DNA of 64,000 bases from Escherichia coli. Lineage in GTDB: Bacteria > Pseudomonadota > Gammaproteobacteria > Enterobacterales > Enterobacteriaceae. The notes beneath the pieces were generated by a model. The model saw only the letters and a program-made list of their open reading frames with translations. It did not search any database and had not been told where the DNA came from. The number at the start of each line of letters is the position of its first letter. Position 1 is the stretch's first letter. The stretch lies in the NCBI RefSeq assembly GCF_013122565.1, contig NZ_CP053258.1; one strand, 5' to 3'. A program made the position numbers and the translations under genes. This document shows positions 43,501 through 49,096 of this stretch, one piece after another.

Positions 43501-44577
43501 ATGAAATTGACGCTGAAAAACCTTAGCATGGCGATCATGATGAGTGGAATGATCATGGGAAGCAGTGCAATGGCGGCGGACAGCAACGAAAAAATAGTCA
43601 TCGCCCATCGCGGTGCCAGTGGATATTTGCCGGAGCATACGCTGCCAGCAAAAGCGATGGCGTATGCGCAGGGAGCGGATTATCTTGAACAGGATTTGGT
43701 GATGACCAAAGACGACCATCTGGTTGTTCTGCATGACCATTATCTCGATCGTGTTACTGATGTTGCCGATCGTTTCCCGGATCGGGCGCGCAAAGACGGT
43801 CGTTACTACGCGATAGATTTCACGCTGGATGAAATTAAGTCGCTGAAATTTACCGAAGGTTTCGATATTGAAAACGGTAAAAAAGTGCAGACTTATCCGG
43901 GGCGTTTCCCAATGGGTAAGTCCGACTTTCGGGTGCACACCTTTGAAGAAGAGATTGAATTTGTTCAGGGGTTAAATCACTCTACCGGGAAAAATATCGG
44001 TATCTATCCAGAAATCAAAGCGCCGTGGTTCCATCATCAGGAAGGGAAGGATATTGCGGCAAAAACGCTGGAAGTGCTGAAGAAATATGGTTACACCGGT
44101 AAGGACGATAAAGTTTATTTGCAATGTTTTGATGCTGATGAGCTGAAGCGTATTAAGAATGAGCTGGAACCTAAAATGGGCATGGATCTCAATCTGGTAC
44201 AGCTGATTGCCTATACCGACTGGAATGAAACGCAGCAGAAACAGCCGGATGGAAGCTGGGTTAATTACAACTACGACTGGATGTTTAATCCGGGTGCGAT
44301 GAAACAGGTGGCGGAATATGCTGATGGTATTGGTCCGGATTACCATATGTTGATTGAGGAGACATCGCAGCCGGGTAATATCAAACTCACTGGCATGGTG
44401 CAAGATGCTCAGCAGAATAAACTAGTAGTGCATCCTTATACCGTGCGGTCAGATAAACTGCCTGAATACACTACTGATGTGAATCAGTTATATGATGCTC
44501 TGTATAACAAAGCGGGTGTAAATGGGCTGTTTACTGATTTCCCTGACAAGGCAGTAAAATTTCTTAATAAAGAGTAA
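43501..44577 (+). CDS. glpQ: Periplasmic glycerophosphodiester phosphodiesterase
   Basis: 358 aa from MKLTLKNLSMAIMM... (signal peptide ...SSAMA/AD); GDPD catalytic motif HRGASGYLPEHT. Confidence 0.94.
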   Translation: MKLTLKNLSMAIMMSGMIMGSSAMAADSNEKIVIAHRGASGYLPEHTLPAKAMAYAQGADYLEQDLVMTKDDHLVVLHDHYLDRVTDVADRFPDRARKDGRYYAIDFTLDEIKSLKFTEGFDIENGKKVQTYPGRFPMGKSDFRVHTFEEEIEFVQGLNHSTGKNIGIYPEIKAPWFHHQEGKDIAAKTLEVLKKYGYTGKDDKVYLQCFDADELKRIKNELEPKMGMDLNLVQLIAYTDWNETQQKQPDGSWVNYNYDWMFNPGAMKQVAEYADGIGPDYHMLIEETSQPGNIKLTGMVQDAQQNKLVVHPYTVRSDKLPEYTTDVNQLYDALYNKAGVNGLFTDFPDKAVKFLNKE

Positions 44578-44585
44578 TGCTACTG

Positions 44586-44611
44586 CAGGATGGCGTTCAT
44601 GCGCCATCCTG
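44586..44611. terminator. Hairpin between convergent glpQ and the LysR regulator
   Basis: CAGGATGGCGttcatgCGCCATCCTG. Confidence 0.55.
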
Positions 44612-44618
44612 TCTCACA

Positions 44619-45497
44619 TCAAATTTTTCCACTCTCCACTAATTGTTCCGTGCACATTTGCAGTAAAAACAGTGGGCTGCCTTCTACCGGCTTTTCTTTA
44701 GCCAGCAACGAAATCTGTCGATAGAAGGTTGGTTCGAGAGGAACGGAACACAATTCACCTGCAATGGTTTTCAGAGTTAACTCTGGTAATAAGGCGATAC
44801 CTAATCCCTGTCGAATAAAACTGATCGCTGTATCCGGGTGATTAAATTCATATTTTATCTGCGGGGTAATATTCTTTTCTTTAAATAACGTCATAATGCT
44901 TAATTCATAGCGCCCTTTACTAATAATTAACGATTCACCCATTAGCTCTTCCACTGTAATAGTGCTGCTTTTTGCCAGAGCATGGTCGGGCGGTAACACT
45001 ACGGTGAATTTATCCTGATAAATGGGCACGGAGTACATTCCGCTTACCGGAAAATGAACAAAACCGGCATCAATGGATTCATTCTGAAGCGAATCAATAA
45101 TCGCTGTGCTATTTTCCTCAAAAGGAATAATTTTTATATTCGGATGATGAATTTCAAAGTAGCGAATCACAACCGGTAAGATACAGGCGCAGACGCTGGG
45201 GAAACAACCAAGTCGCAGCGTTCTTTGAGGGTTCTGCTTTTCCTGTTCGGCTATCTCTTTTACTGCGTTAACTTCCCGATTAATGGCGCGCAGATGATGC
45301 ACAATGCGGTGGCCTGCTGTGGTCAGTTGTATAGTTTTACGGCGATCGCGTAACAGTATATTCACGCCAAGTTCTTGTTCGAGGGCAGCAATTGCCTGGC
45401 TTACCGCCGACTGCGTCATGAACAATCGCTTGCTGGCTTCAGTAAAGCCACCGTAATCCAGCACGGCGAGTAAAGAATTTATTTGGGTAAGAGTCAT
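44619..45497 (-). CDS. yfaH: LysR-family transcriptional regulator (intact)
   Basis: 292 aa; N-terminal HTH (FTEASKRLFMTQSAVSQAIAALE) plus LysR substrate-binding domain; symbol from position (K-12 yfaH is a fragment). Confidence 0.75.
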   Translation of the reverse strand: MTLTQINSLLAVLDYGGFTEASKRLFMTQSAVSQAIAALEQELGVNILLRDRRKTIQLTTAGHRIVHHLRAINREVNAVKEIAEQEKQNPQRTLRLGCFPSVCACILPVVIRYFEIHHPNIKIIPFEENSTAIIDSLQNESIDAGFVHFPVSGMYSVPIYQDKFTVVLPPDHALAKSSTITVEELMGESLIISKGRYELSIMTLFKEKNITPQIKYEFNHPDTAISFIRQGLGIALLPELTLKTIAGELCSVPLEPTFYRQISLLAKEKPVEGSPLFLLQMCTEQLVESGKI

Positions 45498-45648
45498 TAG
45501 GGTGTACTAATCAATAATATTAAAACGATTAATTTCTCTAATAGCATGCCGCCATTTATACTTTTGTTCTGCAAAGTACATCACAATTTGACGCAACCGC
45601 AGTAACGGGAGTGTTGTCTGCGTGCGTCATCCTGATAGGCGGTAGGGT

Positions 45649-46839
45649 ATGAAAGAGAAGTTATGGACGAAGGATTTTTGGGCAATAACCATCATCAGCT
45701 TTATTATTTTCTTCGTCTTTTATGTTTTACTAACATTGTTGCCAATTTATATCTCTGACCGCTTACATGCCTCTCCTGATAAAGCCGGTTTGTTGGTGAC
45801 TTTATTTTTAATTGCCGCCATTGTTATTCGCCCCTTTGCCGGGCAATGGGTGGGTAAATATTCGAATAAAACTATTCTGGTGCTCTCTTCTCTGGCCTTT
45901 TTATTGGTCACAGCGTTGTATCCTTTTTGCCACTCAATTGAATCACTACTTTTTATTCGGGTGCTTCATGGTATTACCTTCGGGGTTATCACTACGGTAA
46001 AAGGAACGATTTCCGCGCGGCTGATCCCGGCCTCCCGACGTGGGGAGGGCATCAGTTTTTTCTCCCTGGCAATGGGGCTGGCAATGGTGGTCGGGCCGTG
46101 GATTGGTCTGAATATGGCGCGCTGGGAAGCCTTTAATCTGGCTTTCTGGCTATGCACGGGCGTGGCAGCGGTGGGGATTATCCTGTCGCTGATTATGACA
46201 GTGCCACCGGTTATCAGCCATGCTGATGGTTCAAAGCCGAAAGTGGGCTTCGCCGCCATGTTCGATCGCGCAGCGTTGCCATTTGCGATGGTCACCTTTT
46301 TTATGACCTTTTCGTATGCCGGGGTTTCTGCTTTTCTGGCGCTTTATGCTCGCGAACTTAACCTGATGTCGGCGGCCAGTAATTTCCTGCTTTGCTATGC
46401 CATCTTCCTGATGATCTGCCGTACCTTTACCGGCAATGTCTGCGACAAAAAAGGACCGAAATATGTGGTTTACCCTTGCCTTGTGTTCTTTACGGTAGGA
46501 CTGGTGGTTCTCGGCTACACCCAGGGAAGCATAATGATGGTTATTTCTGGCGCGTTGATTGGTATCGGGTATGGTTCTGTGACGCCAGTTTTTCAGACGC
46601 AGATTATCAGTTCAGTGGAGCCGCATAAAATCGGTGTCGCAAACTCTCTCTTCTTCAATGCGATGGATGCAGGCCTGGCGCTGGGAGCCTTTGTGATGGG
46701 GATGATGGTTGCACATACTGGCTATCGGATGATCTATCTGCTGGGCGCACTATTAGTGGTAGTGGCTGGTGGAGTCTATGCGCTGCAAATGAAGGGTAAA
46801 AGCCCTGTCGCGCTAGTAGTGGCAAAAGAAATTCATTAA
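45649..46839 (+). CDS. MFS transporter (12 TM), divergent from the LysR regulator
   Basis: 396-aa hydrophobic MFS-type translation; substrate not inferable. Confidence 0.8.
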   Translation: MKEKLWTKDFWAITIISFIIFFVFYVLLTLLPIYISDRLHASPDKAGLLVTLFLIAAIVIRPFAGQWVGKYSNKTILVLSSLAFLLVTALYPFCHSIESLLFIRVLHGITFGVITTVKGTISARLIPASRRGEGISFFSLAMGLAMVVGPWIGLNMARWEAFNLAFWLCTGVAAVGIILSLIMTVPPVISHADGSKPKVGFAAMFDRAALPFAMVTFFMTFSYAGVSAFLALYARELNLMSAASNFLLCYAIFLMICRTFTGNVCDKKGPKYVVYPCLVFFTVGLVVLGYTQGSIMMVISGALIGIGYGSVTPVFQTQIISSVEPHKIGVANSLFFNAMDAGLALGAFVMGMMVAHTGYRMIYLLGALLVVVAGGVYALQMKGKSPVALVVAKEIH

Positions 46840-46919
46840 TACGACACGTTTCATTAAGATTTTTCGCAGGTAACCACCTATAGTCATTGTCGTTAATAAA
46901 AAATGACAGGCGATAGGGT

Positions 46920-47570
46920 ATGGCAGTTTCAGCAAAGCACGACGAATTTAATCACTGGTGGGCAACAGAGGGCGACTGGGTTGAAGAGCCTAACTATCGC
47001 CGTAATGGTATGAGCGGGGTGCAATGCGTCGAGCGCAACGGCAAAAAGCTGTATGTAAAGCGCATGACGCATCATCTGTTTCATTCCGTACGTTATCCGT
47101 TCGGCCGACCAACGATTGTCCGTGAGGTTGCGGTAATTAAAGAACTGGAACGGGCCGGTGTCATCGTGCCGAAGATCGTTTTTGGTGAAGCGGTGAAAAT
47201 TGAGGGTGAATGGCGCGCGTTGCTGGTGACTGAAGATATGGCGGGGTTCATCAGCATTGCTGACTGGTATGCCCGGCATGCAGTAACGCCTTATTCTGAC
47301 GAAGTACGGCAAGCCATGTTGAAAGCAGTGGCGCTGGCGTTTAAGAAAATGCATAGCATTAATCGTCAGCATGGCTGTTGTTATGTTCGCCATATCTATG
47401 TGAAAACAGAAGGTAAGGCAGAAGCTGGTTTTCTTGACCTGGAGAAAAGTCGTCGCCGCTTGCGTCGCCATAAAGCGATCAATCATGACTTCCGCCAGCT
47501 GGAAAAATATCTGGAGCCAATTCCCAAAGCGGACTGGGAGCAGGTGAAAGCGTATTACTACGCTATGTAA
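46920..47570 (+). CDS. inaA: Kdo/lipopolysaccharide-kinase-family protein InaA
   Basis: 216-aa translation MAVSAKHDEFNHWWATEGDWVEEPNYRRNGMSG... recognised as InaA. Confidence 0.85.
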   Translation: MAVSAKHDEFNHWWATEGDWVEEPNYRRNGMSGVQCVERNGKKLYVKRMTHHLFHSVRYPFGRPTIVREVAVIKELERAGVIVPKIVFGEAVKIEGEWRALLVTEDMAGFISIADWYARHAVTPYSDEVRQAMLKAVALAFKKMHSINRQHGCCYVRHIYVKTEGKAEAGFLDLEKSRRRLRRHKAINHDFRQLEKYLEPIPKADWEQVKAYYYAM

Positions 47571-47575
47571 TCGTT

Positions 47576-47612
47576 GTAGGCCAGATAAAACGCATAAGCG
47601 CCGCATCTGGCA
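47576..47612. repeat. REP-like palindromic unit between inaA and yfaE
   Basis: GTAGGCCAGATAAaacgcataagcgCCGCATCTGGCA resembles the E. coli REP consensus. Confidence 0.6.
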
Positions 47613-47623
47613 CTACAACCAAT

Positions 47624-47878
47624 TCACATCTCGATTTCAATATCGCCTTTTGCCCGGCAACAACAGGGCAAAATTTCCCCCGGCTGAATAAAGGCTAACG
47701 GTTCGGCAATCCAGTCCACCTGACCTGCAACCAGGCGTGTGCGACAGGAGCCGCAGTAACCTTCGCGACACTGGTACTCAACCGCCACATTGTGGGATTC
47801 CAGCGCCGCCAGAAGAGAAGGGTGTTCATCCTGGCACAGCAGTTGTGTGCCAGTGATGCGCAGGGTAACGCGGGCCAT
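47624..47878 (-). CDS. yfaE: 2Fe-2S ferredoxin YfaE (NrdB cofactor maintenance)
   Basis: 84 aa with four Cys in plant-ferredoxin spacing (CREGYCGSC...C); start overlaps nrdB stop. Confidence 0.9.
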   Translation of the reverse strand: MARVTLRITGTQLLCQDEHPSLLAALESHNVAVEYQCREGYCGSCRTRLVAGQVDWIAEPLAFIQPGEILPCCCRAKGDIEIEM

Positions 47879-49008
47879 CAGAGCTGGAAGTTACTCAAAT
47901 CGTCGGTGTCCACTTCCGCGTCAATCTGCCCGACCAGATAAGAACTGACTTCCACTTCCTGCGGAGCAACCTGCACGTTATCGGACACCAGCCAGGTGTT
48001 GATCCACGGGATCGGGTTGGAGCGAGTCTGGAACGGCAGATCCAAACCGACCGCCTGCATACGGATATTGGTGATGTACTCAACGTACTGGCAGAGAATG
48101 TCTTTATTCAGACCAATCATCGAACCGTCGCGGAACAGATAATCCGCCCAGTCTTTCTCCTGTTGAGCTGCCTGAACAAACAGGTCATAGCACTCCTGCT
48201 TACACTCTTCGGCAATTTCCGCCATCTCCGGATCATCTGCGCCGCTGCGCAGCAGATTCAGCATATGCTGAGTACCGGTCAGGTGCAGGGCTTCGTCGCG
48301 GGCAATCAGGCGAATAATTTTGGCGTTGCCTTCCATCAGTTCGCGTTCTGCAAAGGCAAAGGAGCAAGCAAAGCTGACGTAGAAACGAATCGCTTCCAGC
48401 GCGTTAACGCTCATCAGGCAGAGATACAGTTTTTTCTTCAGCTCGCGCAGGCTAACGGTTACGGTTTTACCGTTAACGGTGTGGGTGCCTTCGCCCAGAA
48501 GGTGCCAGTAGCTGGTCATTTCGATCAGTTCATCGTAATAGCTGGAGATCCCTTCCGCACGTTTCTGGATCTGCTCGTTGGTGACGATATCGTCAAACAC
48601 AACAGACGGATCGTTAATGATATTACGAATGATATGAGTATAGGAGCGGGAATGAATCGTTTCTGAGAACGCCCAGGTTTCGACCCAGGTTTCCAGTTCC
48701 GGGATCGAGATCAGCGGCAGCAGTGCCACGTTCGGGCTACGACCCTGAATGGAGTCCAGCAGCGTCTGATATTTCAGGTTGCTGATAAAGATGTGTTTTT
48801 CGTGTTCAGGCAGTGCCTGGTAATCGATACGGTCGCGAGAAACGTCAACTTCTTCCGGACGCCAGAAGAAAGAGAGCTGCTTTTCGATCAGCTTTTCGAA
48901 GATGTCATATTTTTGCTGATCGTAGCGAGCCACGTTGACCGGCTGACCAAAAAACATCGGTTCTTTAAGCTGATCATTTTTCGTCTGTGAAAAAGTGGTA
49001 TATGCCAT
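47878..49008 (-). CDS. nrdB: Class Ia ribonucleotide reductase beta subunit
   Basis: 376 aa; di-iron ligand contexts and C-terminal ...DDLSNFQL tail. Confidence 0.97.
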
Positions 49009-49044
49009 GAGTGTGTCCTGTGGTTTTATTACCCCTCACCCTAA

Positions 49045-49066
49045 CCCTCTCCCGCAAGGGGAGAGG
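49045..49066. other. GC-rich palindromic hairpin in the transcribed nrdA-nrdB spacer
   Basis: CCCTCTCCCgcaaGGGAGAGGG preceded by cccctcaccctaa. Confidence 0.55.
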
Positions 49067-49096
49067 GGACGGTTTGGTGCAAAGGCTGGGGGATTA

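Follow-up and report, generated by a model that had tools for sequence, protein, structure and literature searches.

The GC-rich palindrome lying between nrdA and nrdB belongs to a single copy of BoxC, whose hairpin it forms; BoxC is a GC-rich dispersed intergenic repeat of approximately 36-56 bp that occurs in Escherichia coli and other Enterobacteriaceae. The copy is very probably a known repeat without a locus-specific regulatory role, lying in a slot that is also filled by REP/BIME elements, and within this explanation the lack of a specific function is less secure than the family identity. As the copy sits where most strains carry REP, it is regarded as an ordinary repeat and not as an operon-specific regulator. 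The repeat family was described in the 1990s and characterized from 2000 to 2015.

The nrdA-nrdB Spacer and the Layout of the Repeat

The analyzed DNA is a 64-kb stretch of E. coli sequence, referred to as the window, in which nrdA and nrdB are both encoded on the minus strand and are separated by exactly 88 nt (49009-49096) according to the list of open reading frames (ORFs). The two genes are annotated as one operon, confirming the mid-operon position that had been assigned to the palindrome in an earlier note on this DNA. The gene names are backed by the E. coli annotation of near-identical DNA, including E. coli JNE141411, which has a spacer identical to that of the window and flanking genes annotated as nrdA and nrdB. 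The features of the locus are as follows:

47624-47878, minus strand: yfaE (ORF list)
47878-49008, minus strand: nrdB coding sequence, 376 aa (ORF list and E. coli annotation)
49009-49096, minus strand: nrdA-nrdB intercistronic spacer, BoxC allele, 88 nt (ORF list)
49016-49019, minus strand: nrdB Shine-Dalgarno sequence AGGA, 11 nt upstream of the ATG
49032-49067, minus strand: BoxC/PIT/TM_ECO core, type A, by consensus match; mRNA-sense CCCTCTCCC-CTTGC-GGGAGAGGG-TTA-GGGTGAGGG-G
49032-49041, minus strand: block 3, third G-rich block, GGGTGAGGGG; proposed Hoogsteen strand of a DNA triplex (PMC4666352)
49042-49044, minus strand: loop 2, TTA, defining type A; GAC instead in 571 E. coli genomes (consensus and junction search)
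49045-49053, minus strand: block 2, 3' hairpin arm, GGGAGAGGG on the mRNA strand (sequence and fold)
49054-49058, minus strand: loop 1, CTTGC on the mRNA strand (sequence)
49059-49067, minus strand: block 1, C-rich 5' hairpin arm, CCCTCTCCC on the mRNA strand (sequence)
49068-49083, minus strand: 5' flank of the repeat unit, TTTGCACCAAACCGTC (flank comparison)
49088-49092, minus strand: C5 run, 4 nt past the nrdA stop codon (fold)
49097-51382, minus strand: nrdA coding sequence, 761 aa (ORF list and E. coli annotation)

The mRNA-sense strand of the spacer reads TAATCCCCCAGCCTTTGCACCAAACCGTC-CCCTCTCCC-CTTGC-GGGAGAGGG-TTA-GGGTGAGGGG-TAATAAAACCACAGGACACACTC, followed by the nrdB ATG. On the plus strand the palindrome (49045-49067) consists of CCCTCTCCC (49045-49053), the loop gcaag (49054-49058), and GGGAGAGGG (49059-49067), preceded at 49032-49044 by cccctcaccc-taa. 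Its 9-bp arms are 100% complementary around the 5-nt loop, and no such palindrome arose in any of 100 dinucleotide-preserving shuffles of the window, even with two mismatches allowed. The GC-rich palindrome reported by the earlier note in this spacer is therefore real, and its letters were given correctly with the exception of gcaaGGGAGAGGG, which was written one G short. The nrdB Shine-Dalgarno sequence sits in the right flank ACAGGACACACTC that is common to all E. coli alleles.

Other features were observed around the spacer. A 625-aa ATG-initiated ORF (49595-51472, plus strand) runs antisense over most of nrdA and is probably a shadow ORF arising from the biased codon usage that accompanies high expression. 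In K-12, the 11-aa YoaM (b4779, MSVSCWEFNAG) is annotated antisense in the REP-type spacer, overlapping the nrdB ATG by 2 nt (451-486 of the extracted K-12 locus, minus strand). The corresponding ATG in the window opens a 44-aa ORF (49007-49141, plus strand) that passes antisense through BoxC into the 3' end of nrdA. The YoaM sequence is not conserved past residue 5 between the two common alleles, making a sequence-dependent function doubtful.

Assignment to the BoxC/PIT/TM_ECO Family

The consensus of the TM_ECO family is 5'-CCCTCNCCC N3-6 GGGNGAGGG N3 GGGNGAGGG[G/T/C/-]-3' (Holder et al., 2015; PMC4666352). Together with the adjoining cccctcaccctaa, the hairpin forms a three-block unit that matches this consensus without mismatch (49033-49067, minus strand, trailing G at 49032), and the full three-block motif was found in none of 100 shuffles of the window. 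The subtypes are defined by the second loop, TTA in type A and CCG in type B (PMC4666352), and the TTA of the window copy places it in type A. The family was initially named BoxC in the 1990s (Bergler, 1992; Bachellier), was renamed PIT for potential intrastrand triplex by Hoyne and Maher (Hoyne et al., 2000), and is also called TM_ECO (Holder et al., 2015; PMC4666352). BoxC is also listed among the known E. coli repeat families with a length of 56 bp and 32 copies (Petrillo et al., PMC2267715).

A search for the hairpin elsewhere in the genome, as had been suggested in the earlier note, was positive: the 73-nt element has a median of 17 and a maximum of 30 matching places per genome and is present in 5,409 of 5,426 complete E. 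coli genomes. The window itself contains one BoxC copy only, as expected from the genome density, and this copy is wholly intergenic, being contained in the 88-nt spacer. The K-12 copy upstream of fabI, the region in which BoxC was originally described, reads ACGGTC-CCCTCGCCC-CTCTG-GGGAGAGGG-TTA-GGGTGAGGGG and has the flank stretch TTTGCAC..A.AC.GTC in common with the window copy. Further K-12 copies between hrpB and mrcB, after tauD, and after adk possess the core and the 5' junction as in the window copy, the junction being ccGTC in the window versus cgGTC or caGTC in K-12 type-A copies. The K-12 copies inspected have the three-block architecture in common with it and not just low-complexity G/C runs. 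The window copy is absent from the list of 23 K-12 BoxC copies because K-12 has REP/BIME elements between nrdA and nrdB. The names nrdA, nrdB, and "ribonucleoside" were not found in the supplements of Holder et al. (2015) covering 62 TM_ECO loci, the tables of which apparently give coordinates only. The hrpB-mrcB region of K-12 (164400-164800) was observed to hold two BoxC copies, one of type B and one of type A, in inverted orientation with 16 nt between them.

The REP consensus (GCCKGATGCGRCGYN5RCGYCTTATCMGGCCTAC) had no match in the spacer at up to three mismatches, in keeping with the earlier description of the palindrome as not of REP type, but the element is still a member of another known dispersed family. 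An Rfam 15 search of 47500-52500 with a permissive E-value gave nothing credible in the spacer; the sole overlapping match, to Antizyme_FSE, scored 16.6 bits (gathering score 40, E = 9.5) and is noise. Elsewhere in the window, a perfect match to the REP consensus occurs at 55898-55934 (minus strand) and is the only match at up to three mismatches in the 64 kb. A degenerate REP-like palindrome, GTAGTGCCAGATGCGGCGCTTATGCGTTTTATCTGGCCTACAAC, lies just downstream of yfaE (47579-47646, minus strand) and has a weak, sub-threshold Rfam match to the REP-derived RNA naRNA4 (27.2 bits versus a gathering score of 59.5).

Spacer Polymorphism in Escherichia coli

A junction-specific search identified the BoxC allele in 1,683 of 5,426 complete E. 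coli genomes (31.0%), including 1,111 with 99% or higher identity to the window and 571 at approximately 95.3%, the identity of a variant with an altered second loop. A REP-type junction was present in 3,719 genomes (68.5%), and neither junction was found in about 24 (about 0.4%). At least eight spacer alleles were distinguished:

BoxC as in the window: 88 nt spacer
BoxC with the second loop changed from TTA to GAC: 88 nt spacer
Remnant with block 3 only: 46 nt spacer
REP/BIME arrays of 1-5 units: spacers of 64, 145, 226, 233 (K-12), and 241 nt

Across their range of 46-241 nt, the E. coli spacers share only TGATA at the left and ACAGGACACA(C/T)TC-ATG at the right. The nrdAB spacer is a clean natural case of two unrelated repeat families alternating between invariant coding flanks. 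In a set of 10 sequences, a number too small to settle the history of the alleles, the adjoining 200 nt of nrdA and nrdB did not segregate by allele class, as would be expected had the repeat been imported once together with its flanks.

In the GAC variant (e.g., E. coli Z247, 210-297 of the extracted locus), three adjacent bases of loop 2 are changed from TTA to GAC. All three changes are complementary to the 5' flank CCGTC and extend the stem from 9 to 14 perfect base pairs, and the resulting loop matches neither of the published types (A = TTA, B = CCG). From its sequence, the change looks like a textbook signature of quasipalindrome correction by template switching. The 46-nt allele of E. 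coli BS-04 (290-335 of the extracted locus), which begins TACCCCCCACCAGGGTGAGGGTAAAGTAAAACC, keeps only the third G-block and the C-run and appears to have arisen from the BoxC allele by deletion, akin to the degenerate TM_ECO sites of Holder et al.

The region around the operon was itself divergent, with approximately 96% identity between 44000-56000 and the best of the 5,426 complete E. coli genomes. Closer to the spacer, identity peaked at 99.0% over 501 nt, and the 106-nt junction (49000-49105) was 100% identical in many E. coli genomes. The divergence of 44000-56000 may reflect a divergent Escherichia lineage or a divergent yfaL allele.

The Spacer in Other Species

The 3' end of nrdA was searched for in single genomes representing each species, which yielded at least 120 loci, and the spacer could be delimited in 117. 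Outside E. coli, Enterobacteriaceae mostly carried REPs at this site, with BoxC in a small number of genera. Among the matches listed, REP-like units were present in the spacers of E. albertii (240 nt), Escherichia sp. E1V33 (61 nt), Salmonella enterica arizonae, several Citrobacter, Klebsiella oxytoca, Raoultella, and others. BoxC-type units were found in the spacers of Pluralibacter gergoviae, where a single hairpin has a third block on either side, and of Phytobacter massiliensis and Pseudocitrobacter, each with two copies in inverted orientation. The inverted-pair layout of K-12 hrpB-mrcB is thus also seen in the Pseudocitrobacter and Phytobacter nrdAB spacers. As BoxC occurs in either orientation among the genera, its orientation relative to transcription is not conserved. 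At the sequence level the hairpin is likewise not conserved in orthologous nrdAB spacers, its place being taken by REP/BIME elements in approximately 68.5% of E. coli and in E. albertii, Salmonella, Citrobacter, and Klebsiella. The Pseudocitrobacter copy is followed on its right by GGGGGCATTAAAACCACAGGACACATTC, a sequence that is near-identical to GGGGTAATAAAACCACAGGACACACTC of the window and that also resembles CCGGCATTAAAACCACAGGACACAGTC of the E1V33 REP allele; the exchanged cassette therefore ends at one point whichever repeat is inside.

The spacers of Kosakonia, Enterobacter spp., Cedecea, Buttiauxella, Rahnella, and Hafnia are 50-65 nt long and contain a unique GC-rich stem with a run of 5-8 T after it (e.g., AAGGGGCGGGGAAACCCGCCCTTTTTTTT). 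By their sequence, these hairpins resemble intrinsic terminators or attenuators placed between the two genes. Across the Enterobacteriaceae, the nrdA-nrdB gap tolerates and almost always contains a palindromic element.

RNA Folding and Signals of Gene Expression

The 23-nt RNA core is predicted to fold into a hairpin of -17.6 kcal/mol, in agreement with the stable RNA hairpin proposed in the earlier note. The whole 88-nt spacer has a z-score of only -1.51 relative to dinucleotide shuffles because any sequence this G+C-rich folds well, and the fold energy alone is therefore no proof of significance; the exact motif match is. In both the predicted minimum-energy and centroid folds, the C5 run at 49088-49092 (starting at +5) pairs with block 3, and in the centroid this pairing appears as an outer helix weaker than the main stem. 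Block 3 is predicted to have alternative partners in the RNA, block 1 or the C-run. Based on comparison with the Pluralibacter and Pseudocitrobacter spacers, the C5 run may be what is left of a second BoxC copy in inverted orientation.

The hairpin ends 26 nt and the third G-block 12 nt upstream of the nrdB Shine-Dalgarno sequence. The predicted unpaired probability between -20 and +10 was 0.55-0.62 for BoxC alleles versus 0.65-0.70 for REP alleles, so that in these models access to the nrdB ribosome-binding site shows no meaningful difference between the two classes and the Shine-Dalgarno sequence and AUG are predicted to be free. A promoter and terminator scan made no call within the nrdA-nrdB spacer. 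No U-run was found after the stem, which is followed by UUAGGGUGAGGGG and does not have the form of an intrinsic (Rho-independent) terminator. Published tests of the TM_ECO family detected neither promoter nor terminator activity and no influence on RNA polymerase (Hoyne and Maher, as summarized in PMC4666352); the family shows no correlation with the function of neighboring genes, and its loci are unusually variable from strain to strain (PMC4666352).

Weighing of Alternative Explanations

The earlier note suggested that the hairpin may affect nrdB translation; on such a reading it would be a locus-specific cis-regulatory RNA governing nrdB translation initiation. The transcribed spacer does contain a stable predicted hairpin 26 nt ahead of the nrdB Shine-Dalgarno sequence, but neither this sequence nor the AUG is sequestered, their predicted accessibility being as in the REP alleles, and the spacer has no U-run, terminator, or promoter. 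The dedicated nrdB regulator is further contradicted by the distribution of BoxC, a multi-copy repeat that is not unique to nrdAB, is missing at the locus from approximately 69% of E. coli (REP being present in approximately 68.5%) and from most related genera, and differs in orientation between genera. In addition, 13 of 23 K-12 copies are "type A mm" with a stem mismatch (PMC4666352), which argues against selection for pairing. On this evidence the regulatory reading is very improbable. An RNA G-quadruplex in the mRNA strand that hinders ribosomes or RNases is also very improbable. The transcribed sense strand does carry a canonical motif of four G3+ tracts with loops of 1-7 nt (GGG-AGA-GGG-UUA-GGG-UGA-GGGG), but a quadruplex-aware ViennaRNA fold kept the Watson-Crick hairpin structure as its minimum (-19.1 kcal/mol), NMR of the DNA oligonucleotide spoke against a quadruplex (PMC4666352), and the copies in other genera are oppositely oriented.

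Two broader explanations bear on the locus as a whole. The spacer could require a stable stem-loop that sets the NrdA:NrdB ratio by shielding nrdA from exonucleases that attack the 3' end or by delaying the ribosome at termination, in which case REP, BoxC, and terminator-like stems would be interchangeable and BoxC would be functional only as a hairpin. Among the matches listed, 102 of the 114 sampled species' spacers fold at -15 kcal/mol or below, as do 79 of the 80 spacers of at least 60 nt, and a GC-rich stem of at least 6 bp is present in 92 of 114, mostly starting 0-9 nt past the nrdA stop; at least three unrelated sequence classes occupy the site. The median z-score of the nrdA-nrdB spacers was -3.5 compared to -2.0 in 59 other co-directional gaps (40-250 nt, same loci), a comparison that is a hint only given a small and mixed control set and whose p-value is inflated by the non-independence of orthologous spacers. 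Ribosome stalling has been reported for REPs located no more than 15 nt from a stop codon, with nrdAB mentioned among the transcripts of this kind (Liang et al., 2015, as cited in PMC12306157). However, the stem starts 10 nt past the nrdA TGA in the K-12 REP allele compared to 30 nt in BoxC and 25 nt in the GAC variant, and BoxC and REP would therefore not be equivalent under the 15-nt rule. Palindromic repeats also pile up in permissive intergenic gaps without selection, the E. coli 46-nt remnant has weak structure only, and the hairpin is absent from Photorhabdus (12 nt) and from the 28-nt spacers of mostly unclassified Proteobacteria assemblies (one named Advenella). The structured spacers across species suggest that selection may act on the presence of a hairpin here, so that BoxC could be a functional stand-in and not a passenger, and this explanation is possible although unlikely. 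Its extended form is decidedly doubtful, namely that the Enterobacterales spacer is selected for any stable hairpin, that REP, BoxC, and unique stems replace each other over time, and that the BoxC and REP alleles on either side of the 15-nt threshold are a natural variant in NrdA output or ribonucleotide reductase (RNR) subunit stoichiometry; if true, it would offer a tractable natural system for relating intercistronic hairpins to subunit stoichiometry in an essential operon. The remaining explanation is placed at the DNA level, where the three blocks would form an intrastrand triplex (H-DNA-like) or a single-stranded hairpin during replication or transcription, leading to stalling, template switching, and deletion, and would be the cause of the spacer hypervariability. 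The copy exactly fits a motif that forms a triplex in vitro by CD and NMR (PMC4666352; K-12 consensus oligonucleotides), strains differ by rearrangement more often at TM_ECO loci than at control loci (PMC4666352), and the locus itself provides the 46-nt deletion remnant with block 3 only and the GAC variant of 571 genomes, in which the 9-bp stem has become a perfect 14-bp palindrome with a template-switch signature. Against this, the triplex was undetected by in vivo DMS footprinting and the oligonucleotide returned to duplex on addition of its complement (PMC4666352). REP/BIME arrays vary in copy number at the locus without BoxC (64-241 nt), and the instability therefore does not depend on BoxC. 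BoxC as the cause of the hypervariability is rather unlikely.

Proposed Role of the BoxC Copy

Under the preferred explanation of a known repeat without a locus-specific role, the BoxC copy would be a passenger in a permissive slot that is transcribed passively in the nrdAB mRNA, with the G-rich strand as the RNA strand, and its RNA would fold into a 9-bp G:C-rich stem-loop. REP hairpins protect upstream mRNA. Any effect of the stem-loop would most likely be that of the REP hairpins it replaces, a generic barrier to 3'-to-5' exonucleolytic decay shielding the upstream nrdA segment and not a specific nrdB translation switch. Such a generic effect may extend to relative mRNA stability, as also raised in the earlier note. 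At the DNA level, BoxC would act as a structure-prone repeat, and its presence, variants, and remnants at the site would stem from local replication or recombination instability as opposed to selection for this exact sequence. The significance of the finding is small, as it is a correct sighting of a known family. Its value lies in annotation, where the spacer is to be labeled BoxC/TM_ECO and not as a novel regulatory hairpin.

Comparison With Known Systems

The REP/BIME elements fill the same slot from the nrdA stop to the nrdB ribosome-binding site and resemble BoxC in being GC-rich imperfect palindromes that are transcribed in operons and variable in copy number. However, the two sequences are unrelated, and the distance from the nrdA stop to the stem is 10 nt for REP versus 30 nt for BoxC. 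REP has known protein partners and its own transposase, whereas none is known for BoxC from the sources cited here. The terminator-like hairpins of Kosakonia, Cedecea, Buttiauxella, Rahnella, and Hafnia agree with the BoxC hairpin in position, GC-rich stem, and similar stability, but they are followed by 5-8 T whereas the BoxC hairpin continues into UUAGGGUGAGGGG without a U-run. The closest agreement is with the BoxC/PIT/TM_ECO family itself, with which the window copy shares the exact consensus, the TTA loop, the junction, the intergenic location, the multi-copy nature, and a strain-variable locus; it differs from most K-12 copies, which carry one mismatch, in that its hairpin is perfect.
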